DNA of 63,732 bases, taken from the IMG/VR virus record IMGVR_UViG_3300036770_004125, positions 1 to 63,732 of that record. One strand, given 5' to 3'. Both the position numbers and the translations under genes were made by a program. Below are positions 39,681-63,732 of this stretch, piece after piece (positions within the stretch are counted from its first letter, which is position 1; every line of letters begins with the position of its first letter). The stretch is from a virus. Lineage: Duplodnaviria > Caudoviricetes. The notes under the pieces are model-generated. The model had not been told where the DNA came from. It saw only the letters and a list, made by a program, of their open reading frames with translations, and did no database searches.

Positions 39681-39742
39681 ATTCTACAGGATAGGAGGGG
39701 ATTTGGGAACCCCCCCCTTGTGCCAGTTGTCAGACTGCCACC
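39681..39742 (-). promoter_or_regulatory. Representative cassette promoter: palindrome, GC-rich spacer, -10 box
   Basis: Minus strand AACTGGCACA-N32-TAGAAT with no TTGACA at -35; same layout in front of most cassette ORFs. Confidence 0.75.
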
Positions 39743-39972
39743 CAGTAAGTGTTGACCTGAGTAGGGGTCGCCTCACCGATCTCCCGCTGCTCTGCCATGA
39801 TCCACTGATCACGAGGGCGGGCGGAACGCCAACCCATCAACTGATGGTAGCACTCCTCAAGAGTCCGGGGATAGGCGACGGTGGAGACGATCTTGCCATT
39901 CTTCACCATCGCCACAGCGAACGGGTAGCGGGTGGAGCAGAGGATGGTCTTAAGGGGGGTGGGGTTGGTCAC
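39730..39972 (-). CDS. Cassette ORF, hypothetical
   Basis: 80 aa; stop codon lies inside the palindrome at 39719. Confidence 0.6.
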   Translation of the reverse strand: MTNPTPLKTILCSTRYPFAVAMVKNGKIVSTVAYPRTLEECYHQLMGWRSARPRDQWIMAEQREIGEATPTQVNTYWVAV

Positions 39973-40045
39973 GGGTGGTTCCCTTTGGTTGACTCTTGAA
40001 TTCTACAGGATGGGGGTCGCTTCCGCAACCCCCTCAGTGGGCGGT

Positions 40046-40210
40046 TTAGAAAGCGACCTGAGACCAGTAGAGGTCATAAAGAGCGGCGAGGGTCTCACGC
40101 TCCCGCTGCTGGCGGTAGTGTGCCCAGGACTGATGCTCAACGGGGCGCAGGGCGCGGATGCGGCGGGCGCTGCAGCGCATCGCGTTCTCTGCCCAGGTGT
40201 GGTTGATCAT
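40046..40210 (-). CDS. Cassette ORF, hypothetical
   Basis: MINHTWAENAMRC...; start taken downstream of the -10 box. Confidence 0.55.
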   Translation of the reverse strand: MINHTWAENAMRCSARRIRALRPVEHQSWAHYRQQRERETLAALYDLYWSQVAF

Positions 40211-40292
40211 GGTGTCTCTTGCGTGTTGACTTCTGAATTCTACAGGATGGGGAGACCGTTTCCAATCCCCCCGTGTGCAGGTTAACCAACTG

Positions 40293-40406
40293 TCACAGTT
40301 GACCTTTGCGACCCAGTGCAGCGATCTCAGCAGCGGTGGCGATGAGATCACCCCAGACCCACACCAGTTGGCGGGTGGCGATGTCGCAGGCGGCGGAGAA
40401 AATCAT
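40293..40406 (-). CDS. Cassette ORF, short paralog of 39486..39656
   Basis: MIFSAACDIATRQLVWV... (37 aa); stop codon in the palindrome at 40274. Confidence 0.5.
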   Translation of the reverse strand: MIFSAACDIATRQLVWVWGDLIATAAEIAALGRKGQL

Positions 40407-40475
40407 GGTGTCGTTTGCGTGTTGACTGAATCATTGTAGCAGGTCGGGGGAGGGGGTCAACCCTCCCCGTGGGGA

Positions 40476-40706
40476 TCACGCCCAGGACGGGATCGCCATC
40501 CACGCCTCTGCCTGCCCGATCTCCTCCGCTTCCAGCGCCTCGGCAGCAGCAGCGGGGATCGGGGTGCCAGCATTGAACAGACCCACCAAGATGTCCAGCA
40601 TCACGCCATCATCCCAGCAGTAGCGGTGGTCAATCTCAACCTGGATGCCCTCCCAGAAGGCGACGAAGGCGGGGAAGTCAAAGCAGGTCTCGGTGGTGAC
40701 GGTCAC
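40476..40706 (-). CDS. Cassette ORF, hypothetical
   Basis: 76 aa, GTG start after a TACAAT box. Confidence 0.55.
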   Translation of the reverse strand: MTVTTETCFDFPAFVAFWEGIQVEIDHRYCWDDGVMLDILVGLFNAGTPIPAAAAEALEAEEIGQAEAWMAIPSWA

Positions 40707-40776
40707 GGGTCGCGTTGCGTGTTGACTGAATCATTGTAGCAGGTGGGAGGGCACCGTTGCGGGTGCCCTCTGGGGA

Positions 40777-40956
40777 TCATCCCCCCATCGCCTCTTTAAG
40801 GGCATCGTATGCTGCCAGGTAGTGGTCAGCGTCTTTGTAGTTGCCCTTGATTTGTTCCTCACAGGCAAGGGAAAGCACTGCAACCCGGATGGTGTCCCAC
40901 TTGCCCTGGGGAAGGGTGATGGTGGCGGGGGTGGCGGGGTTCCAGGTGGCGGTCAT
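40777..40956 (-). CDS. Cassette ORF, hypothetical
   Basis: Read manually: MTATWNPATPATITLPQGKWDTIR...EAMGG (59 aa). Confidence 0.6.
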   Translation of the reverse strand: MTATWNPATPATITLPQGKWDTIRVAVLSLACEEQIKGNYKDADHYLAAYDALKEAMGG

Positions 40957-41029
40957 GAGGTCTCTTGCGTTGACTTCTGAATTCTACAGGATGCGGTGGG
41001 GGATCTGAGTCCCCCCTTGTGCCAGTCGC

Positions 41030-41326
41030 TCAACCGTCCACCAACTGCCTAGCGCACTCCTTCATAATACAAACTGCGCCAGCGAGAGTAGGATAGTCTC
41101 CGCATTCTCTCAGGAGTTTGGCACTCTCAGCGGGGACAGGAATTGAGATAGCATCCCAAATCTCAAGCGGAATGTCATTAAAATACTTTTCCTTTGACTG
41201 CTCCAATCGGTGAATTCCGATGTTATTGATCAACCGCAGTTTATGCGCGTTAGTGACAAACTGGGCGTAGTATGCACGATGGACTTGATGACCGCCAGTG
41301 GCAAGATACTCTTTGCGGGTGATCAT
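41030..41326 (-). CDS. Cassette ORF, hypothetical
   Basis: MITRKEYL...HRAYYAQFV...FNDIPLEIWD. Confidence 0.7.
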   Translation of the reverse strand: MITRKEYLATGGHQVHRAYYAQFVTNAHKLRLINNIGIHRLEQSKEKYFNDIPLEIWDAISIPVPAESAKLLRECGDYPTLAGAVCIMKECARQLVDG

Positions 41327-41398
41327 GGTGTGGGTTCGTTTGAACTGAGTCAATTGTAGCGGGTCGGTGGGGGGATCTGAGTCCCCCCGTGTGCCAGT

Positions 41399-41566
41399 TT
41401 AGGCAGTGACCTCCATCCACTCTTGATCGTTGCAGAAGATCACGATGGGGGCACCGTGCAGTTCCACCGACCAGTCGAAGGCAACATCGACTGCGTGATC
41501 CTCAGAGGTGAAGAACTCACGATCCTCGGGGGATGCCTTGGGGGCAGCAGACCAGGAAACGAACAT
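41399..41566 (-). CDS. Cassette ORF, hypothetical
   Basis: MFVSWSAAPK...AVDVAFDWSVE. Confidence 0.6.
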   Translation of the reverse strand: MFVSWSAAPKASPEDREFFTSEDHAVDVAFDWSVELHGAPIVIFCNDQEWMEVTA

Positions 41567-41639
41567 GGGAGGAATCCCTGACGACTCGATCATCCTACAG
41601 CATGGTGGGCACCGTTGGGGGTGCCCAGTTCACAAACTG

Positions 41640-41888
41640 TCACATCATCGAAACAACCCGCATGATGGTAGAAACCTGCACCGGAGTTTGCCACCCGATT
41701 ACATCTTCCAACATGTTGTTGTCGGGTCTGATGATAGCAACCTCAAAAGTGTCGTTTTCGATGTTACCGTACAGACCAGAACCTTTCGGACCTGAAACTA
41801 CACTCACTGCCCACTTGTTGGGGAAAGTGTGCAGTGCAACCGTAGCACCTTCGATAACATGATCCCGAAAGTTCAGAGTGGAGAACAT
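41640..41888 (-). CDS. Cassette ORF, hypothetical
   Basis: MFSTLNF...FPNKWAVSVV...GLYG...TFEVAII. Confidence 0.7.
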   Translation of the reverse strand: MFSTLNFRDHVIEGATVALHTFPNKWAVSVVSGPKGSGLYGNIENDTFEVAIIRPDNNMLEDVIGWQTPVQVSTIMRVVSMM

Positions 41889-41959
41889 TGTCCTGTCCGA
41901 TTGACTGAAACAACTATAAGGGGTGGGAGGGGGCAGTGTGCCCCCCAGGTGGACACCTA

Positions 41960-42277
41960 TCAAACTGTCACAAGATCCTGCCAGGCACGGTAGGTTTCAG
42001 TAACCTTGCGGGCGAACTTGATCAGTTGAGGATAACCCTCAGTGCGACACCAAACATAACAAATTTGAAGAAAGTTCCAAACTTTCGTGAGAGTTTGAAT
42101 GGTAGCATCCTTGCCACCTTGCTGATACCATTGAACAAACTTTTCAGTGAGAACATAAACAACGGCAGCGATGGTGAGAATAATGGTCACAAACTGTTTC
42201 AGGAGTTTGTGATAATCAACCTTTGAAAGTTGCTGAATCAGGGCATCAGCGGGCGGGAAGTTGGCGGTGGTTTGCAT
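41960..42277 (-). CDS. Cassette ORF, membrane-anchored hypothetical protein
   Basis: MQTTANFPPADALI... with one hydrophobic segment; stop codon in a palindrome. Confidence 0.65.
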   Translation of the reverse strand: MQTTANFPPADALIQQLSKVDYHKLLKQFVTIILTIAAVVYVLTEKFVQWYQQGGKDATIQTLTKVWNFLQICYVWCRTEGYPQLIKFARKVTETYRAWQDLVTV

Positions 42278-42426
42278 TGTTCTGGGGTGGCGAGGGAAAA
42301 TGTAGAGGCGTCTCAACCACCCCCATAAGTTACCAGCATCGTGGGCGATCCGCAAGGGGGTCTGTGCCAGTTTGGAAAGTGGCACAGTGGTGGTTGCCAG
42401 GGGGTCGTGGGGTGCTATGATATGTT

Positions 42427-42535
42427 CATAAGCAAAGGGGAGCGGGGGCGCCGCGATGATACAAACCAAGTCACTCACCCTGCCTTAAAATAAGTTAGTA
42501 TAAAGTATAAAAAAAGAGGGCGATTGTGCCCTCTT
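42427..42535 (+). ncRNA. Candidate small RNA, copy 1 of 5 (others ~43160-43268, 44741-44848, 45717-45826, 48792-48899)
   Basis: + strand -10 box 29 nt after a palindrome; AAGGG...CCCT closing stem; AT-rich tract; terminator hairpin. Confidence 0.55.
42509..42535 (-). terminator. Rho-independent terminator (similar hairpins near 43241, 44825, 45798, 48872)
   Basis: AAGAGGGC-ACAATC-GCCCTCTT followed by a T tract on the minus strand. Confidence 0.8.
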
Positions 42536-42543
42536 GATTATAT

Positions 42544-43002
42544 TCACCAGAGACCTTCGTTCACCAGGCGATTGTAAAGAGTGTTAGCAAGTTTGCCGCA
42601 GTGATCACATGCCTTAGCGTACTTAATCTCAGACTTGAGAGCATACTTATCGGTGGTTTTGTAACCGCCGAACTTGTAACGATGTACTGCACTTACCAGT
42701 TTGAGCAGTTGGCGCTTTTTCAGATCTTCGCCCGCCATTTTATAGATGGGGATGAAGAAACGATAATCCTTAATTTCACGGCACTTGGCAAGTTTGTCAA
42801 CGATAACCTTAGATTCTTTGCCCCCAAAATAGGGAGTAAGTTCAACCATCAGGAAAGCATTGAAAGGTGCCAGTTGATCTGCCTTTTTCTTTTGATCCTC
42901 TTGAATCTCATTCAGTGCCTCACTGATAGTTTCAACACTCTTGAGAAAACTATCCTGCAGTTGCTGCAGTTGGGCGGTCAGAGTTTCAATGGTCGCAGTC
43001 AT
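42544..43002 (-). CDS. Cassette ORF, hypothetical (coiled-coil N terminus)
   Basis: MTATIETLTAQLQQLQ... (152 aa). Confidence 0.7.
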   Translation of the reverse strand: MTATIETLTAQLQQLQDSFLKSVETISEALNEIQEDQKKKADQLAPFNAFLMVELTPYFGGKESKVIVDKLAKCREIKDYRFFIPIYKMAGEDLKKRQLLKLVSAVHRYKFGGYKTTDKYALKSEIKYAKACDHCGKLANTLYNRLVNEGLW

Positions 43003-43271
43003 GATAGACTCTTGGGTTGGTGGTGGGTCGGGGCGTTTCGTTTCCCCCCGATGCACATAAGATACGGCAGATTCCGGGGCACCACAAGGGGGTGTGTGCC
43101 AGTTCAGAAACTGTCCCCTAAGACGGTCTTAGGGGTGCCCGATGCCTTACAATAAGATCACAAGGGAAGGGAACGCGGGCGGCGTGATGATACAAACCAA
43201 GACACTTACCCTGCGATAAAATAATACAATTATAAAGTATAAAAAAAGGGGGCGATTGTGCCCCCATTTGA

Positions 43272-43409
43272 TCACTCTTCAGGGCCATAAGCACACTCCA
43301 GAGAGTATGCTTCCAGTTCCTGATCATCCTCATAATAGGATGCCCAATCCTCCTCGGTGGGGATATACTCCTCGTCAATCTGCTGGTAGTCGGTGAAGGA
43401 ATAGGTCAT
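43272..43409 (-). CDS. Cassette ORF, highly acidic peptide
   Basis: MTYSFTDYQQIDEEYIPTEEDWASYYEDDQELEAYSLECAYGPEE (45 aa). Confidence 0.6.
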   Translation of the reverse strand: MTYSFTDYQQIDEEYIPTEEDWASYYEDDQELEAYSLECAYGPEE

Positions 43410-43479
43410 GGGGTGTTCCCTTGGTTGACTCTCTTAGATTAGGGGATGGGGGGTGGAAAGTCAACCCCCCTGTGCCAGT

Positions 43480-43719
43480 TCAGAAAGCGACCAGTTGATC
43501 AATCTCCCACTGGGGGACAGTGTATACTGTGCCGCCGCAGTTCTTTTTCAACCACGCATTGATGTGCTTAGTGGTGGTGGTGCTGTAGGACTGCTCAGTC
43601 CGCATCCAACCCCGACCAGGCACCAGTGCCGCAACTGGGGTGCTGTAGGAGAACAGAACGCAGGTTCCGTTTGCCAGTTCAACCTCAGTGCTGGTGGTGG
43701 TGACTTGATTGACTTTCAT
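43480..43719 (-). CDS. Cassette ORF, hypothetical
   Basis: VLFSYSTPVAA...YSTTTTKHINAW. Confidence 0.75.
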   Translation of the reverse strand: MKVNQVTTTSTEVELANGTCVLFSYSTPVAALVPGRGWMRTEQSYSTTTTKHINAWLKKNCGGTVYTVPQWEIDQLVAF

Positions 43720-43798
43720 GGTTCTGGTGGTGAACTGAGATCATTATAAGGGCACCAAGGGAACCACTGCGAGTCCCCTTGTGCCACTTGTCAGGGTG

Positions 43799-44035
43799 TC
43801 ACACTGCGGCGAGTGCTTCCACGGGGATCAGCACTTGCTCGCGGATCCAGCGGTGATAGGTTTGACCGATGGATGCCTCAGGATTGCTCAGGAAACTAAT
43901 CAGTTCCTGCTCATCATCAGTGACAAAATTATACACAGCATCAGGATTGCTCCGGAAAGAAACCTTAACATCCTGACCATCAATCTCAACGGAAGCGATG
44001 GCGGAAGATTGAGACTCGGTGAAAGTGAACAGCAT
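43799..44035 (-). CDS. Hypothetical protein, KTSC-like start
   Basis: SSAIASVEI...VSFRSN...YNF. Confidence 0.6.
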   Translation of the reverse strand: MLFTFTESQSSAIASVEIDGQDVKVSFRSNPDAVYNFVTDDEQELISFLSNPEASIGQTYHRWIREQVLIPVEALAAV

Positions 44036-44341
44036 AATAGAATAAGACCTGTAAGGTTTGTAAGATTGAGCAGTTTAGAGTCTTACTCAGGACTGTTTAA
44101 TCTTACGATTCTGCCCAGAGTTGGTGAATCTTACTCATGACATTGCTATAGTCATCAATGGGATCATGTTCATCATCCTCGCAAAACTCACGATTGTTTG
44201 CGACCAAAGAGTAGATCAGATCCCACTCAGATTCAGTAAAGAACTCTTTGATGGTTTGACTCATGGGGTTCGTTTGAACTGAGGTTATTGTAGGGGGTGG
44301 GGGGATCTTATGGCATCCCCCCTGTGTCAGTTTCTAGAGTG

Positions 44342-44614
44342 TCACACCCCCATCAGAATGGCACGGATGCGGTCACGCTTGCGGGGAGGATTGACCAGAC
44401 TCCAGCGGTTGCGCTGGAGTCGCTGCCCGTGGCGCTTCATAGATGCCCACAGGATGCCCTCTTGCTCCATCTCAACCATAATGGCATGGATGGTGCCCTT
44501 GTGGGAGCGGGGATCCATCCCCAGCATCCACACCAGATCGGAGCAGGTCGTCTCGGGGTTCACCGCCAGCACGGCACGGATGCGGGAACGGATGGAGGAG
44601 TTCAGGGAGCGCAT
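44342..44614 (-). CDS. Small basic protein, possible winged-helix DNA-binding fold
   Basis: IRAVLAVNPETTCSDLV...IHAIMVEMEQEGIL...RNRWSL. Confidence 0.55.
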   Translation of the reverse strand: MRSLNSSIRSRIRAVLAVNPETTCSDLVWMLGMDPRSHKGTIHAIMVEMEQEGILWASMKRHGQRLQRNRWSLVNPPRKRDRIRAILMGV

Positions 44615-44856
44615 TTGGGGTTCGTTTGAACTGAAGTCAGTATAGGGGGCAGGATGGGGGCAGTGCTGGGGTCGGTGTGCCAGTTCATAAGGTGGCACAG
44701 CAGGGTGGCACAGTGCCCCATGATGCCCTATACTAAGATCACAAGGGAAGAGGGAGCGGGGGCGCCGCGATGATACAAAACAAGACACTTACCCTGTCAA
44801 ATTATATTATTAGAATTATAATGAAAAAGAGGGCGATTGTGCCCTCTTGTTTATAC

Positions 44857-45591
44857 TCAGGCGGTCACGAGTTTCTTACTGTAACCGCTGAACTGTTTGT
44901 TAGCACGACGGGCGCGAATCGCCTTGCCCCATTCAGAACCTGCTTTCTGAGTTCCGTGTACTAACAGCGCAAACGGTTTGTCACCAAAACAGTGAGAATC
45001 GTCGTGATCAACTTCCAAACCTGCGGCGTTAGCATCATCATCCGTCATAAACACTTTGCTATAACGGGTGAAGAATCCTTCATCAATTAGATGATCCCAC
45101 TTGCCACCATAGGATGCGGTCAGGTAGAAGTTGGCAGGCAACTTAAAGTTGAGAAAGAGTTGCAAACTCTTGCTGTAGCAATAGAATTTCAGATCAGGAT
45201 TGCGGTGAGCAACTTCAATCCAGGCATCCAAATAAGCACCGGAGAAAAAGTCACCAGACTCGTGAATCCGCACGAGTTTGGTATTTTTAGTGCGATGATG
45301 TTGGATGCTGTCGTTGATCAGATCCGCAGCAGATCCATTCTGGATTGCATCAACAATCATCTTAAGATTGCTGGCACGATTCTCAAAAACCGCATCATAC
45401 TGCACCTCAGATGATGCAGCAAAACAACGAAACTCGGTGTGTTCGCCATCTTGAATGGTGCGCTTTCCGTTAGCATCAACCACGGCAAAACTCTTGCAAA
45501 ACATAGCACCGGGGCAAGTCTTGCCAGCGGGCAGGTTGAAGATCAGAGTTTGCTTGCCGAGTTTGGCGTTACCTTTGGAAAAGTTCAGCAC
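44857..45591 (-). CDS. GP88-like phage protein
   Basis: GNAKL...FNLPAGKTCPGA..C, VRIHESGDFFS, FYCYSKS. Confidence 0.75.
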   Translation of the reverse strand: MLNFSKGNAKLGKQTLIFNLPAGKTCPGAMFCKSFAVVDANGKRTIQDGEHTEFRCFAASSEVQYDAVFENRASNLKMIVDAIQNGSAADLINDSIQHHRTKNTKLVRIHESGDFFSGAYLDAWIEVAHRNPDLKFYCYSKSLQLFLNFKLPANFYLTASYGGKWDHLIDEGFFTRYSKVFMTDDDANAAGLEVDHDDSHCFGDKPFALLVHGTQKAGSEWGKAIRARRANKQFSGYSKKLVTA

Positions 45592-45829
45592 GGGAGGAAT
45601 CCCTGACGACTTCCATAAGTTACAGCAGAATCAGCACCAGTGCCAGGGTGTTGTGTCAGTTTGGAAAGTGGCACAGCGACTGCCCAATGGTGCTGGCGAT
45701 GCCTTAGAATATAGGAAAGAAAGAAAGGGACGGGAATCCCGACGACGACAACTTATAAGTAACCTGCCCTACCATAAAATAATCTAATATAAAGAATAAA
45801 AAAAGGAGAGTATAACTCTCCTCTTTGTG

Positions 45830-46018
45830 TTAGAATTCAATCTCCCAATCAGTGTCCCGATTCAGATTGACCCAGAAGTGGTATTTGTGATTCATGGATG
45901 TAACAAATACCTTGTCACCTTTGTTCTGTTCAATGATAACTTCATCCACAGAATCCATCAGGTTAGCAAACCGATTCTTTGCTTTCTTAGACTTAGGAAT
46001 GACAAATGCGGTTTCCAT
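45830..46018 (-). CDS. Cassette ORF, hypothetical
   Basis: METAFVIPKSKKAKNRFANLM... Confidence 0.65.
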   Translation of the reverse strand: METAFVIPKSKKAKNRFANLMDSVDEVIIEQNKGDKVFVTSMNHKYHFWVNLNRDTDWEIEF

Positions 46019-47287
46019 GAGAACCTCATCAACAGTGGTAGTATGGCAGGGGATCATGAGAATCACAACCCCCATTGTGCCAGTTTGGAAAGTGTCACAT
46101 CAGAAGACCATTTCTTCCAGTGTGGGTTGATCTTGCATTGCATCAGCATAACCACCAGCGATGTCAGCATCAACATCAGAATCAAAATCGCTCGTGATTG
46201 TGTCAAGAATTGACAGAATCTGTTCGCCATTCTGACCAGCGCGAAGCATACCGAGAAGCATTTCTTTAGTCATGATAAGAAAGAATAAGATGGTAAGGTG
46301 TGTAAGATGTGTAAGACTATAAGATTATCAGTTTCCGTCAGATTCTTCAGAAACTTCCACGACTTCAATCAGAGGAATGGGAATCCCATCAGGAGTCCAT
46401 TGAATGAGTTCAGATTCAAACAGAATGTCAAACATGATCAGAAGTCGTTACCAGAGTTGAGAAAGTCAGCGAAAGAAGCATCATCATAAGAATCCTCATC
46501 ATCATCAAAGATGGTAGGATCCTCTACCAATGCCTCATAAGGATCGTAATACAGTTCTTCGGTGTAAGCAGTCATGAGAGTGAGTTGCGAACAAAAGAAT
46601 TATAGCAGGCAGTTTAGAGACTTGCCTAGGTCTGATGTGCCAGTTAATCAGATGGCACTCGTGCCCTTGCTGACCCAGAGTGCCAGTCGCATCGTGCTCG
46701 CTTTCTTCACGGATTGCGAAGGGCGACCAGTAGCGTGGGCGAAGGCTTGCAGATCTTTACGGGTCACATCGGACACCATACCGATCAGAATCTTACGGGC
46801 ACCAGTCAGGAGTTGCTGTTGAGTCATGGAAGTTCGGTGTTGAACAAGAGAATTGTAGCAGGCAGTTTAGAGACTTGCCTAGGTCTGGTGTGCCAGTTGT
46901 CAAAGTGTCCTTATGACCTACTTTCCATAAACTCTGCCCAAGCATTAGCATCTGACTCAAATTGAAACAGAGCAATGCCTCCACCCATTTCTTCATCTAT
47001 AACCTGATACCATTGCATCAGAACTTCATTGTCAAGATGATAAACAGAATCAACAGAAAAACGAGGTTCAGTCATTGAGATAAGGTTCACGGAGGTCTTC
47101 TACGAATGCAAGTGCCTGCATCAATTCAGGGTCTTCATACTGTCTCCATTGTTTCAATGAATCCATTGCCTCTTGAATTGCGAAATGAATGTATTCAAGT
47201 TTTTCGTAGTCAGTCATGAGTTTCCTCAGGAACAAATACAATGTAGTAGGGATCTTATGAGAACACAAGACCCCTTGTACCAGTTTC

Positions 47288-47713
47288 TCAACTGTCCATT
47301 TTCACATGCTGCTCCAGAATACCATAAACATCATCAGAACCAATGAATGTGCCATCTTTCTTATAATAAGAAGTGCTACATTCAACACCAGAACGAGAAT
47401 CAATGGTAGCAGAATTGATCTCCATGATGTTAGAAGTCATCACAGGAAGAAACTGATCAATCAACCAATCCCACACTTCACTGTTGCTATTGAGTTCTTC
47501 AGTGTCACATTCAATCAGAAGTTTGCCACCACTGATGCGAACATAATCAGCAAAGTCTAGATCAAGGTTATCATTAGAATCAAGACCATAAAACTCAAAG
47601 ATAGAGTTTTCCTCTTGCACACAACGAACAGAAAGTCCATCCAGATAGGATTGAAGATCAAAATTGTCAACAACTTCACACTTAGCGGTGGCAACAAATT
47701 GAGTGTAGGACAT
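47288..47713 (-). CDS. Hypothetical acidic protein
   Basis: 141-aa ORF; stop codon inside the palindrome at 47276. Confidence 0.65.
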   Translation of the reverse strand: MSYTQFVATAKCEVVDNFDLQSYLDGLSVRCVQEENSIFEFYGLDSNDNLDLDFADYVRISGGKLLIECDTEELNSNSEVWDWLIDQFLPVMTSNIMEINSATIDSRSGVECSTSYYKKDGTFIGSDDVYGILEQHVKMDS

Positions 47714-55647: not shown

Positions 55648-55959
55648 TCAATAAGAGTATGCAGAAGAAACCCAATCGTCGTATGCTGCCTCTCCGAGAG
55701 CATCGCAGATTTCTTCTACAATCTTTTTTGGTTCTGGAAGAGGAGAATCTACTCGGTTCCAATGATACATGATTACATCAAGAGGAATAGTTGAATCCAC
55801 ATCCCAACTGTAAGTATAACTGGGATACAATGGATCATTCATTTCCTTACTTTCGGCATCTTGTCGTGCCTCATCAATCTCATCAAGATACTGATGAAAC
55901 TCAACAGGAAGATTGTCCCATTCTGATTGGGATTGAGGTTCAGTGAGAACTTGACGCAT
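55648..55959 (-). CDS. Cassette ORF, acidic hypothetical protein
   Basis: 103 aa; stop codon at palindrome 55627. Confidence 0.65.
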   Translation of the reverse strand: MRQVLTEPQSQSEWDNLPVEFHQYLDEIDEARQDAESKEMNDPLYPSYTYSWDVDSTIPLDVIMYHWNRVDSPLPEPKKIVEEICDALGEAAYDDWVSSAYSY

Positions 55960-56029
55960 TGAACTGCTCCTGGATTACTTGGTCATTATAGGGTCACGGA
56001 AATGCCTCTGGTGAGGTTTGGTGGACAGT

Positions 56030-57541
56030 TTAATAACCGACCTTTATGTACGCTGGAGGTTCGGACAGATGCTTTTGGTAGAAATCATTTTGTGAAAATT
56101 TTCTTCTATTGATAATAATATAACCTCTTCCTGATGCAGCTGCCATCCATGTCAATAAAATTTGATGTTTAACGATTTCTTTTATCAATTTTTGATTATT
56201 TGAGAAAAAGTAACCAAATTCATATGATGATAATAACCAACCATTTTTTAAATCATTTGCATTATTGATTTTTATATTTTCTTTTGACAATTCTGAGGCA
56301 TAATTTTGATAAAAATCAATTGCTTGTTGTGTTTCACCATTTTTTACCATATGTTTAAATAACTCAATATAATGAGAACCTGGATAAAACATTTTTTCTA
56401 AAGAATAATGATTGAAATTTTTTGACTTAGTAATGTTTTTAAAATATTCATCTAAATCAACATCATTGAGTGCATTTTTAAAATTCTTCAATCTAATTTC
56501 TTTTAGTCCTTTAAAAAATCTTCTTAATGAAATATATTGATTTGAAAGTTCTTCAAAATAAAATGAAGTTAATCCACCTTCTCCACTACTTGATTTAGAT
56601 GGTGATGGAGTAAAGGCACTTTTTTCTTCTGAAATATGAATAGAATTACCTCCAGCACTATAATTTGTCCAAATTGAATAATTTTTAGACATTTTTTGAT
56701 ATTGAACTTTGAAATATATTTTCCATCTGGCATCTTTTTTATTAAAATTAATAGGATATGAGATTTCAATCATATCCTCCAATTTTTTTAGAAACTTTGC
56801 TTTTTGTCCACTTGATGCTAATTGTTGAAGAATCATCATTTCTTCATTAAATTCATCTTGAACATCTTCTTTAAGTGTAATAGATGTTGGTGCATTAATG
56901 AATTTTACTCTTGGATTTTTGGTATTAATCTCTTTAAGTGAGACTGGAATAACATTTTTATTTTCAAACTCTGTGTTCATTAACTTTTTCTGTTCGGATA
57001 AAGTTAATTTTTTAGTTCTGATTCCTTCTTTTAAATTGTCTATTAAATCTGATCTTTCATCATACAAAATGAGGTCTGCAATTATCCATTTATCTGGTCT
57101 CATTCCCATAAGAGTTGAACTTTTCCCACCAGATTGTTTGAATATTTTTTTAATTCCAGATAAACAAGTAGTTTTAATATAAAACCCTTTTTTACTATCA
57201 CTTTCTGAAGTTCTCAATATTTTATAGCGAGATAGAGATACACCAATATTTCTTTCTATTGCTTTTGCTGTAAAATAACTAACGGCAAACCAATTGTTTA
57301 CTGTTTCATTTTTAATTGTTTTATCTGTTGGTTTTGGATATACCTTGGTGTATGTGCTTTTTGATTTATTTTGTATCTCGCATTTCTTTACTACATCATT
57401 AAATTTTTTAACTGCATCCGATCCAGTATCGTAAAATAGATCAATAAATTCTTTTAAAGATGCTCTTGGATACTTTCCAACAAAAGCAATTGCGATTGCA
57501 GATAATGATTCATTTAATTGTGTTGATGCTGCCATATTCAA
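56030..57541 (-). CDS. Putative PD-(D/E)xK-type nuclease-like protein
   Basis: N-terminal TQLNES; PDKWIIADLILY...IPVSLKE; very AT-rich. Confidence 0.55.
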   Translation of the reverse strand: MNMAASTQLNESLSAIAIAFVGKYPRASLKEFIDLFYDTGSDAVKKFNDVVKKCEIQNKSKSTYTKVYPKPTDKTIKNETVNNWFAVSYFTAKAIERNIGVSLSRYKILRTSESDSKKGFYIKTTCLSGIKKIFKQSGGKSSTLMGMRPDKWIIADLILYDERSDLIDNLKEGIRTKKLTLSEQKKLMNTEFENKNVIPVSLKEINTKNPRVKFINAPTSITLKEDVQDEFNEEMMILQQLASSGQKAKFLKKLEDMIEISYPINFNKKDARWKIYFKVQYQKMSKNYSIWTNYSAGGNSIHISEEKSAFTPSPSKSSSGEGGLTSFYFEELSNQYISLRRFFKGLKEIRLKNFKNALNDVDLDEYFKNITKSKNFNHYSLEKMFYPGSHYIELFKHMVKNGETQQAIDFYQNYASELSKENIKINNANDLKNGWLLSSYEFGYFFSNNQKLIKEIVKHQILLTWMAAASGRGYIIINRRKFSQNDFYQKHLSEPPAYIKVGY

Positions 57542-57909
57542 TACCCGTGATTTGGAATTTTCTGAGAATACTGTCTTAAAAGAACAGCGGCCACTGCATT
57601 TGCTTCATTTTCAATCTCACTACCATCATTACCATTCATTTCTTTGCCGTCAGTCTTTTGCTTATAATGCACCAGTTCGTGTGCTAGTGTGCGATAGATG
57701 TCCATTGGGTGCCTTTGAGCAACTTGAACTCTTATCACATCATTATCTAGTTCATAACAACCAAAAGTCTTATTGGATGCAGAAAACTTTGGATCATCAA
57801 TCACAATGATTTTAGGAGTACCTGATAGTTTCAGATACTGCTTTGCGAAGGAAACAAAGTCCTGAATATGTGATTTTTTGGATTCAGTCAGGAATTGTTG
57901 AAGGTTCAT
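57538..57909 (-). CDS. Zincin-like metallopeptidase domain protein
   Basis: RTLAHELVHYKQ...ENEANA (HExxH plus a downstream E). Confidence 0.75.
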   Translation of the reverse strand: MNLQQFLTESKKSHIQDFVSFAKQYLKLSGTPKIIVIDDPKFSASNKTFGCYELDNDVIRVQVAQRHPMDIYRTLAHELVHYKQKTDGKEMNGNDGSEIENEANAVAAVLLRQYSQKIPNHGY

Positions 57910-59153
57910 CTTGGTTGTCTTCTTGTTCTAACACCTCTGCTATCTCTATGTCTTTGTTGTCTTATTGGTTCTCCTTGAGTTTTCCAATCAGCAGGATGTA
58001 AAACACCTCGTAAGTCTCGTTCTAACCTACGACGTTGCTTGGCTGATTTAATATCTACATCACTCGTATACATGTTTGATGTCACAAACTCATCTGCTTT
58101 GTTTGCTTCTTTTAATCCTCTCTTCTTTTTAACTCCTCTTGCCTGAGTGTGATTATCTCTTATATCACCTCTTGAATCTTGCCAATCTCTTTCTTGTGCA
58201 TCCCACTCATCTGACGGATTTCTTTCGTCTCTATGATTTTTTTGATGATACTCTTTATAATCTTTTGGATCAAATTTTTCTATAATATCATTCGCCCATT
58301 CTTCACTAATATTCTCTGCCATTTCTTCAGCATTTTCCATAGTATCAGCATATCCTTCATTATAAAGATAATGTGCAACAATTACCTTTGATAAATCAGT
58401 GGTTCTTCTTCTTGGTGGTTGAGCAGGAGTTTCAACTTTTCTTGCAGATCTTGGTGCTTTTGGTTCTTCAGAACCTCTTCCTCTTGCACCTATTTTTGCC
58501 ACAAGTTTTTTTTCTTCTGGTGAAAGTGGAAACTTATGTGCAAGTTTTTCCATAATATCATTAACCCATTCCTCACTGATACTCTCTGCCATGAGTTCAG
58601 CACCTTCAAAGGTATCAGCAAATCCTTCTACGAAAAGATATTCTACAATTGATTCAAAATCATCTTTTTCTTCTTTTCTCAAATACTTTGGAAGATGTTC
58701 TGCTCTTACCCCTGCCCTTTCTGCTTGTTTTGTTGCAGGATGCTCTGGGCCTACACCAGATTGAAAAACCAATCTTGCCATTTTTGTTCTTTTCTTTCTA
58801 ATATCTGCAATATTTTTTGCTCTTTGACGAACTTCTGGTGATACTACCTTTGCTTCTTTTACTTCTGCTTCTTGATTTTTTTGTTGCAGTTTAGCAATTC
58901 TCTTCTTATTTCTATCTACAGCAAATTGTCTTAACCCACGCACAATTTTCCCTCTTCTTGAAAATTGGGGAGCACCTTGAAGTCTATTTGCAATTGCAAG
59001 AGCAATCTCTTGAGGTATATCTTTTGCCTCAAGAAGTTGCTCAAATTCCTCATCAGTCATTTCCTCAAGAATTTGTTCTGCTTCTTCATAAGAATCAGCG
59101 AATCCTTCAAAATACAAAAATTTGAGAAGTTGGTTATATTCGTAAGAAGACAT
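57906..59153 (-). CDS. Repeat-containing charged protein (probable internal head protein)
   Basis: Three copies of (Y/F)LxxEG(F/Y)AD(T/S)xExA...(S/T)(E/D)E. Confidence 0.7.
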   Translation of the reverse strand: MSSYEYNQLLKFLYFEGFADSYEEAEQILEEMTDEEFEQLLEAKDIPQEIALAIANRLQGAPQFSRRGKIVRGLRQFAVDRNKKRIAKLQQKNQEAEVKEAKVVSPEVRQRAKNIADIRKKRTKMARLVFQSGVGPEHPATKQAERAGVRAEHLPKYLRKEEKDDFESIVEYLFVEGFADTFEGAELMAESISEEWVNDIMEKLAHKFPLSPEEKKLVAKIGARGRGSEEPKAPRSARKVETPAQPPRRRTTDLSKVIVAHYLYNEGYADTMENAEEMAENISEEWANDIIEKFDPKDYKEYHQKNHRDERNPSDEWDAQERDWQDSRGDIRDNHTQARGVKKKRGLKEANKADEFVTSNMYTSDVDIKSAKQRRRLERDLRGVLHPADWKTQGEPIRQQRHRDSRGVRTRRQPR

Positions 59154-59193
59154 TGGAAGATAAAAACACTACTTGTTTTTATTTAGTTTATAT

Positions 59194-59219
59194 AAAAAAA
59201 GAGGGTGGTGAGACCCTCT
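59194..59219 (-). terminator. Rho-independent terminator
   Basis: AGAGGGT-CTCACC-ACCCTCT followed by a T tract. Confidence 0.8.
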
Positions 59220-59240
59220 GTATCAAATTTGGAATGTTTA

Positions 59241-59963
59241 TTATCTACCAGATGCTCTTCTTCTGCGAGCAGCTTGATTGGTGCGACTCAAACTATAATG
59301 ACGTTCTCCTCCCGACGTATCATCATCTCCATGATAACCTGCATCATAACTTCCATCATCTGCCCCTGGTTTAGCATTTAGTCTCTTGATAGACTTTCTA
59401 TTCGCTTCTATTCTTTCACGATCTCTTCTATCATTAGTATTTTCAGTTTCTCCTTTTTTTCTTAACTGAGATCCACGTTGTACTTCATTTTCTGCAGCAT
59501 CTTTCCACTTTGGTTTTTTATATACATCTTTATTTCCTCTAGTTACCTTGCGAATATCATTTCCAGTAATTCTATCTGCAATAGACCTTTGTGATCCTCT
59601 AACTGCTTCATCAAGAATCTCTTCTCTCCACTCTTCACTCATATTTGCCATGATAGCAATGGCATTCTCATTGGTATCTGCATAACCTTCTGCGACCAGA
59701 TACTCAAGAAGATAATCAAAGAGATCATATGATTCATTTTGACCTCTTCCTTCTTGAGAAGATCCTCGATTCCAAGGATTAATTGTGTGCTTTTTACGAT
59801 ACTCAGGATCATTTGCCATCCTTTCTTGATGATCTTTCACACGTTTCATATGAGCATCTTGTTCTTGCTGTTTTCTCCAGTTTGTCATTCTTTGACCCGC
59901 CCCCCTGGATACTTCATCAAGTTCCTGATAAACACTTAAATACGCTTCTTGGAGATTGTCCAT
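59241..59963 (-). CDS. Charged protein of the same repeat family
   Basis: MDNLQEAYLSVY; YLVAEGYADTNENAIAIMANMSEEW. Confidence 0.72.
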   Translation of the reverse strand: MDNLQEAYLSVYQELDEVSRGAGQRMTNWRKQQEQDAHMKRVKDHQERMANDPEYRKKHTINPWNRGSSQEGRGQNESYDLFDYLLEYLVAEGYADTNENAIAIMANMSEEWREEILDEAVRGSQRSIADRITGNDIRKVTRGNKDVYKKPKWKDAAENEVQRGSQLRKKGETENTNDRRDRERIEANRKSIKRLNAKPGADDGSYDAGYHGDDDTSGGERHYSLSRTNQAARRRRASGR

Positions 59964-59989
59964 TACTCTTTAAACTATTATAAGTTTAT

Positions 59990-60199
59990 TTATTTATTGT
60001 ATGATTCTAAAGAGTAGAAATACTCTAATCTTGCCTTTTCTTCTTGTAACTTAAGGTCTTCTGTATAACGAATGAAATGCTCTTGAAGTTCCAGATCTTC
60101 CTCTGAAAAGGGAATATTATTTTCCCTTTTGTATCTAATATTCTGAGCAAATTGAGTGATGTAATTTACAGGTAAATCCAAAAATTCTTCGTAGGACAT
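59990..60199 (-). CDS. Hypothetical protein
   Basis: 69 aa with a GAGG RBS. Confidence 0.6.
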   Translation of the reverse strand: MSYEEFLDLPVNYITQFAQNIRYKRENNIPFSEEDLELQEHFIRYTEDLKLQEEKARLEYFYSLESYNK

Positions 60200-60358
60200 T
60201 TGCGATTCATTAGACCTCTATTCTAATTTATCTCTTTTTGTTTCTCCAATTCTTGCATAATTGCATCAATAAAATCCTGTTCCGTCCAAGTATTCAGGAT
60301 ACTTTCTTGTGGGTCATTCTCATCCCAGTAAATGGTAAATGACCCATCACCTTCTTCT

Positions 60359-60613
60359 TTAACCCCTATCATTTTGAATTACCGAATGACGTTGTGAAGG
60401 ACAATCAAGGAAGAACTTATATTCCGCATAACTCCCACCATTCCACTTTACAACATTACAATTTCCATATTTATCCACCACTTCAAACCTATTCTCAAGT
60501 TCTTTTGGTTCAACAGTAATCGCAGTATTGATAAGAGTTAATGTTGTCGCACTTGTAAAACCAAGAACAAACCCAAGTAGAATAAACCGATAATAAGTGA
60601 GTTTCTGTTCCAT
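60359..60613 (-). CDS. Small membrane-anchored protein
   Basis: N-terminal hydrophobic helix; FEVVDKYGNCNVV. Confidence 0.65.
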   Translation of the reverse strand: MEQKLTYYRFILLGFVLGFTSATTLTLINTAITVEPKELENRFEVVDKYGNCNVVKWNGGSYAEYKFFLDCPSQRHSVIQNDRG

Positions 60614-60770
60614 TAGGTCGTTTGCTCCTTTCTTTGAGTGTTAATGTATTCCCCAAGTTTAGTCAAAATCTCTCTACATTTCGTTTGAACGTATTGGTCT
60701 TGGAGTTGACTTTCCTTGTATCTTAGCACAGATTGAAAGACAATCTCTGCTTCTTGTTTAGTGAAGTTCA

Positions 60771-61232
60771 TTAGTTATCATCCCAAGGTGCTTTGCGGTT
60801 TAATATTTCCCTGAACCTTTCCATTACTTTAGGGTCTGGTGGTTCATTGATTCGTCGCACAAGTTCATCATATGCTTCTCTGGAAACATAGATCGTTTCA
60901 GGCTTTGCTCCAAAGTATGTCAACCACTTGCCATCTTCAACCATTTTAGAATATCCTTCATTTATAGAATTCCAAAAATCTTGATATAGAAATCTATTTT
61001 CATTATGAATGATGAGACGATACCAACACCAAAATGGAGTATATCGAAGAAACTTATTACCTATTATGATCTTATGAATATTCATTCTTTTGGTGGGGTA
61101 AGTAAAATCCATAACCATACAAACATCGTTATGAGAACAATAAGTTCTACAATCACTGGAGGTATATTCATTCGTCAAATCCCTCAAGATACATCTTTCT
61201 CCAACCATAGCACATTTCTTCGTAGAAAGCAA
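60771..61232 (-). CDS. Hypothetical protein (start uncertain, perhaps 61086)
   Basis: LRYTPFWCWYRL...ILNRKAPWD. Confidence 0.5.
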   Translation of the reverse strand: MLSTKKCAMVGERCILRDLTNEYTSSDCRTYCSHNDVCMVMDFTYPTKRMNIHKIIIGNKFLRYTPFWCWYRLIIHNENRFLYQDFWNSINEGYSKMVEDGKWLTYFGAKPETIYVSREAYDELVRRINEPPDPKVMERFREILNRKAPWDDN

Positions 61233-61337
61233 GTCGGTCTATTTCAAGGAAGTATTCATCAGTACTGAAATCCAGACGAAACATAATCGCAAAGTAGATG
61301 CTATAAAATCCGTACATAAAGTTCTTGAGTTTTTTCA

Positions 61338-61601
61338 TTATGTTCCTCTATAGTATGATAAGTCCATAGGGCACCGATAGTTTAGTAAATTTATATTCAA
61401 ACTAAGTAATGAAATATGGAGATAAAACGAAAACAAACTGCCATCAAAGATGCCAAATCCAAATCTAATATTCGGTTCCCAATCGCAATATACACTTGCG
61501 TGAAATGAAATATCAAATAAATTAAACTTCCTAAATTGACCTAAGATAAAATATATGTCTCTTCCATAATCGTATTCTGTATAAAAATCAAAGAGTTTCA
61601 T
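61338..61601 (-). CDS. Hypothetical aromatic-rich protein
   Basis: 87 aa, downstream of palindrome 61675 and TATAAT. Confidence 0.6.
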   Translation of the reverse strand: MKLFDFYTEYDYGRDIYFILGQFRKFNLFDISFHASVYCDWEPNIRFGFGIFDGSLFSFYLHISLLSLNINLLNYRCPMDLSYYRGT

Positions 61602-61695
61602 GGTGTCTCATCACTCTCAGTCTGTTGTGTATGTAGTCATTATACTACAAAAGGCATTTGATTTCAAGTGCCCCTGTTCCAGTTTGTAAAGTGTC

Positions 61696-62634
61696 CTATT
61701 TCTTTTTAATCCTCCCTCTTACCCACCCATCACTAGGATACTCTACTCCTCTTTTCTCAATTTCTCCATTATTCCACCAAAGTTGCCCCTTCATTTTTTC
61801 TTTGTTCTTTTCTCTAATTTTTTGTTTCGTTTCTTCATTATGAGTTCTACCATAGAAAGAATTTTTTTCACCTTTTCTATCTTCACTCATTTTATTTTTG
61901 ACTTCATCAGTATGAGTTTTTCCATAAAATGGATTTTTATCACCAAGTTTTGCCAATCTTATATTTTCTATTGCTTTTTCTGTATGTTTTAATCCAAGAT
62001 TTCTAGTAAAATGACTTATATCTAACTCTAATTCTTTTATCCATTTGTTTATACAATCATAAACAATCTCACTTTTCATTCTTCTTGCAACTTCATTTTT
62101 ACTATGAGAAGTTTTAACTACATCAATAAACATTTCTCTAAAATCTAAATCGTGAATTTTTAGGTAAGTTCCCCTTCTTCTTCCTTTTCTGGTTTTACTC
62201 ATTTTATCTTTGGTTTCTTGAGATGCTTTTCTTCCCAAGTGCTTTTCTCTTATTTTTTGTTTCCTTTCTTCACTACAAGGAACACCATAACTTGGATTAT
62301 TTTCACCACCCATTCTTTCTTTCATATTATCAATATATCTTTTCCTCACTTGCTCGTATAAGTGAGAATTATACTTTTCACTACGATTTCTCATTAAGAA
62401 ACACGCAAGGTTCATTTTCTTTGTTCTTTCATCATCAATTCCATACCGTTTGATGCAAATTTTTTCCAATAATAAATGTGCGATATAGTGTTCTCTTGGA
62501 GTAAAAATAACAATTCTATCATTTTTACCGAAAATACTTTTTGGAAATGTATGATGCTTTTCTATGTAACCTTCAGGAGGAGTTCTATTCTCTGCTTTCC
62601 TTATGAGGTTACAATAAACCTTTAGATAATTCAT
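61696..62634 (-). CDS. Free-standing HNH homing endonuclease with NUMOD3 repeats
   Basis: YIEKHHTFPKS...TPREHYIAHLLL; repeats NPFYGKTHTDEVK and NSFYGRTHNEETK; WWNNG...GWVRGR. Confidence 0.88.
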   Translation of the reverse strand: MNYLKVYCNLIRKAENRTPPEGYIEKHHTFPKSIFGKNDRIVIFTPREHYIAHLLLEKICIKRYGIDDERTKKMNLACFLMRNRSEKYNSHLYEQVRKRYIDNMKERMGGENNPSYGVPCSEERKQKIREKHLGRKASQETKDKMSKTRKGRRRGTYLKIHDLDFREMFIDVVKTSHSKNEVARRMKSEIVYDCINKWIKELELDISHFTRNLGLKHTEKAIENIRLAKLGDKNPFYGKTHTDEVKNKMSEDRKGEKNSFYGRTHNEETKQKIREKNKEKMKGQLWWNNGEIEKRGVEYPSDGWVRGRIKKK

Positions 62635-62659
62635 TTTTATTCTATTGAGAGTGCATAGG

Positions 62660-62667
62660 TATTTATA
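62660..62667 (-). promoter_or_regulatory. T4-type late promoter TATAAATA (related A/CTAAATA sites at 2179, 5399, 22218, 36826)
   Basis: Exact TATAAATA 25 nt upstream of the endonuclease ATG. Confidence 0.75.
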
Positions 62668-62733
62668 ATAGAAAAGGTGCCCGAAAGCACCTAATCTTAC
62701 CTATGAAATTGCACTCTCAATAGGTGTAAGTAT

Positions 62734-62967
62734 TTAGTAATGATGCTCAGGAACAATCGTAGGTTCTTCTACATTTAGACCTTTCACATTTCCAGTATTA
62801 CAACTATAAAGTGTTGAAAGTTTCTTTCCTTTACAGACGATGTTGAAATGGTCTATTTGTCCGTTTGGGTGAGTAAAGGAAAACCAAACAGCATCATCTC
62901 CCATTACTTCATAATGAACGCTCACATTATCCAAGAAGAGTTCATCAACATTTTGTAGTTCGTTCAT
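62734..62967 (-). CDS. Hypothetical protein
   Basis: MNELQNVDELFLDNVSVHYEVM... (77 aa). Confidence 0.65.
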   Translation of the reverse strand: MNELQNVDELFLDNVSVHYEVMGDDAVWFSFTHPNGQIDHFNIVCKGKKLSTLYSCNTGNVKGLNVEEPTIVPEHHY

Positions 62968-63158
62968 TTTACCATAGTCCTAATAGCAATTTCCATACCT
63001 GCCCTAAATGCCTCATCAAGTGCTGATTTCATACAAAAAACAGAAACATCATAAAAATCCAAACCATCCCTTCCACGGGTTTCAAGAGTTTCAACATTAA
63101 ACCATTTCTTTGCGATGGTTTCAAGAAGTTGATTGTATTGTTCAGGAACAGTGGTCAT
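62964..63158 (-). CDS. Small phage hypothetical protein
   Basis: ETLETRGRDGLDFYDVSV...ALDEAFRAG. Confidence 0.7.
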   Translation of the reverse strand: MTTVPEQYNQLLETIAKKWFNVETLETRGRDGLDFYDVSVFCMKSALDEAFRAGMEIAIRTMVK

Positions 63159-63235
63159 TTCAGTGATGTATAAGAGTGTGGGAACCTTTTGTGCCTCTTT
63201 ATCGCACAGGCGTTCCCTGGTTCCCTTGTGAGTAT

Positions 63236-63625
63236 ATTATAAGGCATCAGGAGGCACTCTGGGAACCTCCTGTGCCAGTTCCTCAAGTGTCCTCAATAAT
63301 CAAACAATAACGACACTGGAAAGCAAAAGTTTCTTTTTGCCAAGTTTTCTTCGCACCATTTTCTTCCCAAGAATACACAACTTCATACCAAGGGTCTGTG
63401 CTCCCATAAGAATTGAAACCCTCAACGGTCACATAACCTTTGGAACCATCTGCCCGTGCCCAACGAGAACCAACTTGGATTTCGTGTGGTTTGAAGAAAT
63501 GACGGACAACTGCTTTGCGTCCATCTATGATTTCAGTTTCGTAGTCCATCGGTTTGGTTGCTTATGAGAGTATTATAAGGCATCAGGAGGCACTCTGGGA
63601 ACCTCCTGTGCCAGTTCTTCAAGTG
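63236..63625. repeat. ~50-bp direct repeat flanking one cassette
   Basis: ATTATAAGGCATCAGGAGGCACTCTGGGAACCTCCTGTGCCAGTTC at ~63236-63281 and ~63572-63617. Confidence 0.9.
63283..63549 (-). CDS. Cassette ORF, hypothetical
   Basis: 88 aa, flanked by two near-identical promoter/palindrome units. Confidence 0.7.
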   Translation of the reverse strand: MDYETEIIDGRKAVVRHFFKPHEIQVGSRWARADGSKGYVTVEGFNSYGSTDPWYEVVYSWEENGAKKTWQKETFAFQCRYCLIIEDT

Positions 63626-63732
63626 AACCATCTTCACATCTTCCAGAACAATCTCATCTGGGTTTTTGATAAATCTACTCATTTCAGTTGTGCTCCTCAA
63701 GCCATTCAAACCATTCATCACCATAATTCTCA

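Follow-up and report, generated by a model that had tools for sequence, protein, structure and literature searches.

The MotA box of phage T4 is a 9-bp monomer site at −30, and its reader is a phage protein acting with AsiA; to our knowledge, cyanomyoviruses have been reported to lack both MotA and AsiA. The MotA-box middle promoters of T4 are summarised in PMC5780444. Promoter-early stem-loops (PeSLs), a repeated promoter element, are described in passages of PMC2839356 and PMC4122927 for the T4-type phages RB49/phi1, T4/PST and KVP40/nt-1. On the cyanobacterial side, the sections of PMC6191309 (Lambrecht et al.) on CGRE1 describe a 21-22 bp palindrome in the yfr2 promoters of Prochlorococcus and marine Synechococcus, with its start between −55 and −57 and with GTTG or GTTA as flanking bases. 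According to the same sections, PMM1637, of the GntR/PlmA family, binds CGRE1 and raises expression, the small RNA (sRNA) Yfr2 is up in high light and nitrogen starvation, and CGRE1 is limited to marine picocyanobacteria, with a PMM1637-type activator in all cyanobacteria. Here we analyse the window, that is, the whole 63.7-kb IMG/VR contig IMGVR_UViG_3300036770_004125 (63,732 nucleotides; estimated completeness 30%), in which a repeated unit built on a 24-bp dyad stands in front of ~30 of the ~55 small open reading frames (ORFs) of a hyperplastic array at 39656..63630 on the minus strand. We read the locus as a cyanomyovirus accessory array whose shuffling promoter cassette would carry an operator of the host PlmA type, and we give this reading slightly better than even odds (probability roughly 0.55).

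The repeated unit

The contig belongs to a T4-like cyanomyovirus. T4-type portal, sheath, terminase and baseplate genes occupy 1-38.6 kb, in DNA ~74-78% identical to that of Synechococcus and Prochlorococcus myoviruses. From 39.7 kb to the contig end there follow small minus-strand genes, ORFans for the most part. On that strand the palindrome reads distal arm TGTGnCAsTT, N4 and proximal arm AAsTGkCACA. With up to three mismatches, the pattern TGTGCCAGTT-N4-AAGTGKCACA gave 26 strand-matches at 19 distinct places in the window, all within 40274-63630, and none in 100 dinucleotide shuffles. The half-site TGTGCCAGTT with at most one mismatch was matched 36 times against an expected mean of 2.6, and 33 of these 36 matches lie above 39.7 kb. 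A scored scan, in which a unit was a dyad with a TAnnnT box 29-32 nt downstream, listed 27 units; two of them, 62765 and 56859, are probably false, as they lie inside genes and their −10 boxes are poor. Five variants (42363, 45652, 43471, 41621 and 56021) were added by eye, for a total of ~30, the number that an earlier sequence-only reading had given for 39719..63630.

The unit is ~90 bp long and runs in the order dyad, GC-rich hairpin, −10 box, short conserved leader and ATG, each cassette having its own −10 box and leader. Other observations of the sequence-only reading were likewise borne out in the scored units. The dyad is separated from the −10 box (TAnAAT) by 29-32 nt, and only 2/27 units have TTGACA at 5/6 or better in the −35 position. 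The proximal arm matches at 9-10 of 10 positions in 18/27 units, against 9/27 for the distal arm. The stop codon of the upstream ORF falls within or at the dyad in 17/27, including 39730, 40293, 41030, 41399, 41960, 43799, 44342, 47288, 53365, 54018, 55648, 61696 and 63283; read directly, TGTGAC and CTTGA give TGA in two frames.

The two arms change independently (for example GACACTT opposite AACTGGCACA), which favours a protein site over a hairpin. A hairpin of a G-run and a C-run is usually formed by the spacer between dyad and −10 box, within the promoter span. The mean minimum free energy of the spacers was −6.95 kcal/mol, compared with −3.67 kcal/mol in shuffles (n=29 spacers, some from false units). 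In AT-rich relatives a T-run follows this hairpin, as in a putative terminator, but not in the GC-rich units of the window.

The unit in other viruses

An exact scan of IMG/VR viral contigs with CACTT-N4-AACTGGCACA (15 fixed bases) retrieved at least 146 stretches with 155 distinct sites. A −10 box matching at 5/6 or better was present at 107 of the 155, and 88 of these 107 were spaced 29-30 nt from the dyad. An ATG usually lies ~20-25 nt further on, and AT-rich contigs often have a hairpin and T-run directly 5' of the −10 box. Promoter-linked half-sites exceeded reversed controls in the window (19 v 1) and in the isolates S-PM2 (11 v 2), P-SSM2 (16 v 3), S-SRM01 (19 v 1), S-SSM5 (6 v 1) and Syn9 (3 v 0), while S-SM2 (4 v 2) was at background. 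The S-PM2 sites are found at gene junctions of the 'ORFanage', 58-62 nt upstream of the next ATG, and Syn9 and S-SSM5 have one copy in front of a conserved gene adjoining cytidyltransferase genes.

In S-PM2 (NC_006820), a dyad at 11352-11370 abuts a 'potential stem loop' at 11369-11391, after S-PM2p038. The passages of PMC4503421 on the S-PM2 ORFanage note this stem loop without mention of the dyad and judge PeSLs too sparse in S-PM2. A search of published full texts for the phage arm sequences found only unrelated primer lists. In the viral contigs L111, L122 and L144, some units have a full TTGACA 6-7 nt after the dyad, and units stand in tandem each 60-70 bp with no genes in between.

The dyad in cyanobacterial genomes

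We scanned 401 genomes from the phylum that includes one titled 'uncultured cyanobacterium'. The dyad with at most one mismatch was present in 29/401, as against 3/401 for the reversed control, nearly all matches being in 3-8 Mb genomes and mostly intergenic. A common sequence seen 3' of many of these dyads is the Rfam family Cyano-1, which corresponds to the Yfr2 sRNA family (as stated in a passage of PMC8400943). The dyad lies 5' of the sRNA start: the first position of the Cyano-1 model follows it by 38-40 nt in 11/28 loci scanned (L308 of the 29 left out), and in 6/6 Cyano-1 loci counted a −10 box stands 29-30 nt after the dyad, which is the spacing of the phage unit. No recurring regulator gene was found beside the cellular dyads. 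Over all genome contigs, the shorter pattern CACTT-N4-AACTGGCACA behaved as expected by chance, with the full palindrome in 2/120 matches and many matches apparently in coding sequence.

A family of photosynthetic small genomes (psbA/psbD present, 1.0-3.9 Mb, 28-70% GC) carries Cyano-1 in 38/40 genomes. Upstream of 9/30 of its Cyano-1 loci, GTG[AC]CAGTT (at most one mismatch) ends at 48-60 nt, where ~0.3 would be expected. Several of these loci carry CAAC-TGTCAC-T-GTGACA-GTTG, a 21-bp palindrome CAAC-N13-GTTG with the same half-sites. The phage half-sites are those of CGRE1, AACTGTCAC and GTGACAGTT, except for a G/T and A/C choice at one position. Beyond this family, the yfr2 genes of cyanobacteria have exactly the arrangement of the phages, with the half-sites facing inward; the sections of PMC6191309 on yfr2 promoters make no mention of such a dyad before the Cyano-1 genes of other cyanobacteria. 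Taken together, the fixed spacing, the missing −35 box, the recurrence in hundreds of viral contigs and the Yfr2/Cyano-1 match lend indirect support to the proposal of the sequence-only reading that the palindrome marks a dedicated promoter class with a putative dimeric-activator site.

A second family, that of G390 (1-2.5 Mb), was rejected as a source of phage hosts, with Photo_RC in 0/9 small or mid-size genomes, five of them (G390, G413, G421, G006 and G009) from the sample of this family. It looks non-photosynthetic, and three null results obtained there are therefore uninformative on hosts.

Some cellular dyads lie in other settings. Four cyanobacterial genomes (L293-L296) share a conserved dyad, TGTACCAGTT-N4-AAGTGGCACA, in a common intergenic region away from Cyano-1. 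Its neighbours are a WD40-repeat gene (L293, L294 and L296) and, nearby, a YiaAB-family gene (L295 and L296), and L296 also has a HEARO RNA; this dyad could be part of the same regulon too. In the L286/L287 region (genomes G315 and G355), dyad pairs stand 473-477 bp apart, and the interval contains no ORF of at least 60 aa. L303 and L305 each have two tandem Cyano-1/Yfr2 genes 162 bp apart beside an Mn-catalase/DUF3891 pair, with a dyad at the second only.

Exchange of cassettes

Next to the array lies a conserved stretch of backbone (34503..38593, minus strand) with gp6-like and gp25-like baseplate genes and a phrog_1574 gene. The last of these (37826-38593) is common to 80 viral loci at 86-95% amino acid identity. 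Homologues of the ~55 array ORFs are few: across all 80 loci only 10 of the ORFs are represented, and in four of the six loci that share at least three array ORFs (L311, L325, L331 and L336) their order is permuted. When junctions of different contigs are compared, their DNA similarity seldom reaches beyond the unit (−18 to ~+60). In four runs of four studies, metagenome contigs match single cassettes at 90-99% identity but join them, within the unit, to other neighbours; one such joint leads from 39734 to 53365, dyad to dyad. A metagenome record of 1840 bases matches the window at 41385-41644 only, from one dyad to the next.

Units make up ~14% of the stretch and contain 20 of the 24 best-supported loose ends (of 585) and at least one end of 10 of the 15 best-supported joints (of 79). 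That breakpoints would map to the palindrome, as the sequence-only reading supposed, held in so far as most lie in units; they do not appear to fall at one point of the palindrome but are spread across dyad, hairpin, −10 box and leader, identity inside the unit limiting the resolution. The metagenome joints are consistent with exchange inside the unit, short of proof.

No tyrosine recombinase (PF00589) was detected in five complete dyad-bearing phage genomes or in the window, and no serine recombinase (PF00239) in the same five genomes; the two profiles matched in 14 and 12 of 14 control genomes, respectively. The array is best read as a PeSL-like seam for homologous recombination, not as an integron. 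Since ~30 copies of the unit lie in the array and phages have it in common, cassettes could be swapped within it by homologous recombination of the phage itself, and such exchange would need no site-specific recombinase, as for the PeSLs of RB49/phi1.

GC content climbs from 27-33% to a maximum of 61% across the window. GC content at third codon positions (GC3) is 0.13-0.2 in the baseplate genes and reaches 0.80 in individual cassettes (39.5-41 kb and 44.3-44.6 kb). Single cassettes at 39500-41000 and 44342-44614 have GC3 values of 0.72-0.80, and neighbours differ by up to 0.3. Assembly chimerism was considered as the source of the GC jump and excluded, because the independent contigs L325 and L357 repeat it beside the same baseplate genes, with upstream flanks of up to 59% and 55% GC. 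Raised GC upstream was also general among those of the 80 loci whose contigs extend that far.

Candidate readers of the dyad

We propose that the −10 box would fire with the host RNA polymerase and that the dyad, centred near −54, is a putative site for a dimeric activator. The activator would be a host protein, the GntR regulator of the PlmA type (PMM1637 in Prochlorococcus). It is the candidate because the same dyad at the same distance to the −10 box heads Yfr2/Cyano-1 genes, and because the half-sites are those of the CGRE1 palindrome. Expression of the cassettes would thereby be coupled to the signal of light and nitrogen stress by which Yfr2 is induced.

Several points weigh against this assignment. 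Its chief weakness is the weak enrichment of the inward dyad in the likely host family, where 14/151 genomes have the phage type (at most two mismatches) compared with 7/151 for the control. In CGRE1 the GTT ends point outward (CAAC-N13/14-GTTG, about −57 to −37), whereas in the phage dyad they point inward across N4 (24 bp, about −65 to −42), and a dimeric regulator of fixed geometry might be unable to read both arrangements. No CGRE1-type palindromes were found in the window and six isolate genomes, which have 0-13 inward dyads each. The CAAC-N13-GTTG palindrome fits CGRE1 as described verbally in PMC6191309, rather than by its logo, and the photosynthetic small-genome family is taken as the likely hosts by psbA/psbD, genome size, GC content and Yfr2 copy number. 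A search for RNA runs matching 39400-49399 found none, the promoters being predicted from sequence. On the side of exchange, many joints and loose ends rest on sides of 20-35 nt, and repeats tend to break assemblies. L309 and L311, the closest backbone relatives, carry at most a few dyads in the 10 kb of sequence upstream of the common phrog_1574 gene.

An unlikely but serious alternative is a reader that is encoded by the phage or delivered with the virion, with a fold that goes unrecognised. Such a protein would be a counterpart of MotA for an early or middle class, and the likeness to yfr2 would be due to convergence or an old borrowing. It would suit the contrast between phages, where inward dyads number 5-13 per genome in 5/7 sequences (at most two mismatches; controls 0), and the weakly enriched host family, as well as the strongly different dyad counts of lineages with shared hosts (S-SM2 0, S-PM2 5). 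Pfam was run on 47 of the 50 small core proteins (up to 330 aa) common to the six isolates (73 of the 78 core ORFs were scannable); 18 of the 47 had no Pfam family, which leaves room for such a protein, but none was recognised as a DNA-binding regulator or as a member of a helix-turn-helix or GntR family. A GntR domain was likewise absent from 5/5 complete phage genomes and from the window. Because half-sites are above control in 5/6 isolates and S-SM2 is the one that is not, the six isolates offer no clean pattern of presence and absence by which a phage reader could be traced, and a lineage-specific factor is not required, though it may exist. Cellular yfr2 genes use the exact dyad and spacing without a phage protein.

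With host PlmA as the reader, a wider role for the dyads can be envisaged, though we consider it rather doubtful. The ~30 candidate operators per genome, multiplied by replication, could act as a PlmA sponge and blunt the Yfr2/Yfr1 stress response, with the cassettes wired into the PlmA circuit. The unit would then combine promoter, sponge and seam for trading genes among phages whose hosts differ in GC content.

It is improbable that the dyad has no role in transcription and serves as a homology patch, an exchange target or a frame-independent stop, its proximity to the −10 box being incidental. The stop codons in or at 17/27 dyads, the TGA in two frames and the breakpoints often in or beside dyads could all be so explained. 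However, the 29-30 nt to the −10 box at 88/107 sites belong to many unrelated contigs, and the cellular sRNA promoters have the same spacing. Homology would not call for a proximal arm so well kept, while the spacer from that arm to the −10 box does vary freely, and an exchange target is not helped by the failure to find a recombinase.

We consider it very unlikely that the dyad acts as RNA, as a 3' hairpin of the upstream message that, with the GC-rich hairpin, terminates, stabilises or marks processing. Perfect copies could form a 10-bp stem, and the dyad lies in the 3' untranslated region of the upstream gene, directly 5' of a terminator-like hairpin. Nevertheless, most copies show drift of the distal arm that the proximal arm does not compensate, pairing is down to 4-7/10 in 15/30 sites above 39 kb (some false sites included), the better-kept arm is the one near the promoter, and cellular dyads lie 5' of an sRNA start and not at a transcript end.

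We give almost no credence to the integron-like array of the sequence-only reading, in which a site-specific recombinase would cut and join at the palindrome: one-gene cassettes lie between imperfect palindromes with stop codons and their order is permuted among relatives, but the reading fails because no recombinase was found, every cassette has its own predicted promoter and breakpoints appear to extend over ~90 bp.

Units and other features of the array

The unit coordinates that follow, all on the minus strand, come from the scored scan except for the five by-eye variants, of which 56021 was counted by hand. Nearest the backbone, the dyads 39719..39742, 40274..40297 and 41018..41041 are each followed by a −10 box TAGAAT (39681-39686, 40237-40242 and 40981-40986) and an ATG at 39656, 40210 and 40956, respectively. 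The dyad 41390..41413 has TACAAT (41353-41358) and ATG 41326. A variant dyad at 41621..41644 has no recognisable −10 box and contains the stop of ORF 41888-41640. The ATG at 41888 belongs to the dyad 41949..41972, which has a variant proximal arm and the −10 box TATAGT.

A perfect dyad at 42363..42386 precedes the −10-like TAACTT, a GC-rich 49-nt leader and ATG 42277, and the dyad 43095..43118 has TATCTT, a structured 56-nt leader and ATG 43002. At 43471..43494 the proximal arm is conserved and the −10-like sequence is TAATCT. The dyads 43780..43803 (TATAAT, ATG 43719), 44323..44346 (TACAAT, ATG 44264) and 44676..44699 (TATACT, ATG 44614) follow, the last heading a cassette with GC3 0.80. The dyad 45652..45675 has a −10-like TAACTT and a long leader, and a perfect dyad at 46076..46099 has a −10-like CATACT and a likely true ATG at 46018.

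Further on are the dyads 46636..46659 (TATAAT, ATG 46575), 46889..46912 (TACAAT, ATG 46827), 47276..47299 (TACATT, ATG 47217) and 47944..47967 (TACATT, ATG 47884). Those at 48727..48750 (ATG 48669) and 49377..49400 (ATG 49317) have variant proximal arms. A near-perfect dyad at 49700..49723 (TATATT, ATG 49639) and a perfect one at 51632..51655 (TATAAT, ATG 51572) come next. The variant dyad AACTGTCCAC at 53346..53369, with TATCAT and ATG 53287, precedes the DUF7717 gene.

TATAAT is the −10 box of all remaining units: 53999..54022 (ATG 53940), 54788..54811 (ATG 54725), the variant 55627..55650 (ATG 55564), the variant 56021..56044 (again AACTGTCCAC; −10 box 55985-55990, ATG 55959), which contains the stop of a 501-aa ORF, 61675..61698 (ATG 61601), 63271..63294 (−10 box 63236-63241) and 63607..63630 (ATG 63549).

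Three units, 42277-42386, 43002-43118 and 45591-45675, have an atypical −10 box (TAACTT or TATCTT). Their leaders are 50-56 nt long, GC-rich and hairpin-forming, compared with the usual 22-26 nt. In the viral loci L103 and L146, similar units precede a short hairpin and T-run that could be a tiny RNA.

Products of the array include a Mom-like protein, a NUMOD3 homing endonuclease, an IrrE-like protease, DUF6900 and DUF7717, and an HNH endonuclease is encoded in the same region on the opposite strand. Rfam families gave no match in the window at the gathering threshold. Two AT-rich islets in the GC-rich block (42500-42545 and 44810-44860) consist of a hairpin GAGGGC-ACAAT-GCCCTC, a T-run and then TATAAT-rich sequence. 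Boxes of T4 late type (TATAAATA-like) follow terminator hairpins at 62635-62690, 59154-59200 and 59964-60000, upstream of the homing-endonuclease gene 61696-62634, a 415-aa ORF and a 240-aa ORF; candidate promoters of both kinds, late-type and dyad, therefore occur side by side in the region 56-63 kb. Another promoter type, a G-run followed by TTGACA (48381-48430), stands before the gene at 48380, and one metagenome joint ends at 48401.

Comparison with described systems

As far as our literature searches reach, connecting the dyad with the Yfr2/PlmA element is new: they found no publication that connects CGRE1, PMM1637 or PlmA with a cyanophage, and nothing in searchable papers on what drives or times the many small early-type genes of T4-like cyanophages. 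For that question, the analysis offers a defined site of 24 bp and, as candidate reader, PlmA/PMM1637, a GntR regulator of the host. If the proposal is true, the most variable part of the cyanophage genome would be expressed according to the light and nitrogen status of the host. The analysis also extends the account of Yfr2, whose regulation outside marine picocyanobacteria is left open in the relevant sections of PMC6191309, by placing inward-facing CGRE1 half-sites before Yfr2 genes beyond that group.

Among the systems that the unit recalls, CGRE1 has the same 9-10 bp half-sites (AACTGkCAC and GTGmCAGTT) in palindromic form before a promoter with a −10 box only. CGRE1 heads sRNA genes, however, whereas the phage dyad heads protein-coding cassettes. 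MotA-box promoters are alike in that a −10 box and an activator site in place of −35 define a class of phage promoter, but the cyanophage site is a 24-bp dyad further upstream and its reader is probably a host protein. Integron attC sites also separate one-gene cassettes and are imperfect palindromes that may hold a stop codon; the phage array differs in having no integrase, no promoterless cassettes and apparently no fixed crossover point.

The closest likeness drawn by the sequence-only reading, that with the PeSLs of RB49, proved apt, with the cyanophage unit as a variant. In both cases, a repeated intergenic stem-loop, promoter and translation start precede small ORFans in hyperplastic regions, relatives differ at the units by insertion, loss, replacement or displacement of cassettes, and crossovers appear to fall at varied points of the unit with no dedicated recombinase known. 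The G-run/C-run stem of the window also resembles RB49 PeSL stems as presented in PMC2839356. In contrast to the PeSL promoter, which is sigma-70-like with −35 and −10 boxes ~17 bp apart and has its stem-loop upstream of −35, the cyanophage unit lacks a −35 box, has its stem-loop at the −35 position and adds the 24-bp dyad at about −42 to −65. It also lacks a Shine-Dalgarno sequence, its hosts are cyanobacteria and its cassettes range in GC3 from 0.2 to 0.8. This range indicates gene flow between phages of compositionally very different hosts, and the array represents PeSL-type cassette exchange in cyanophages.

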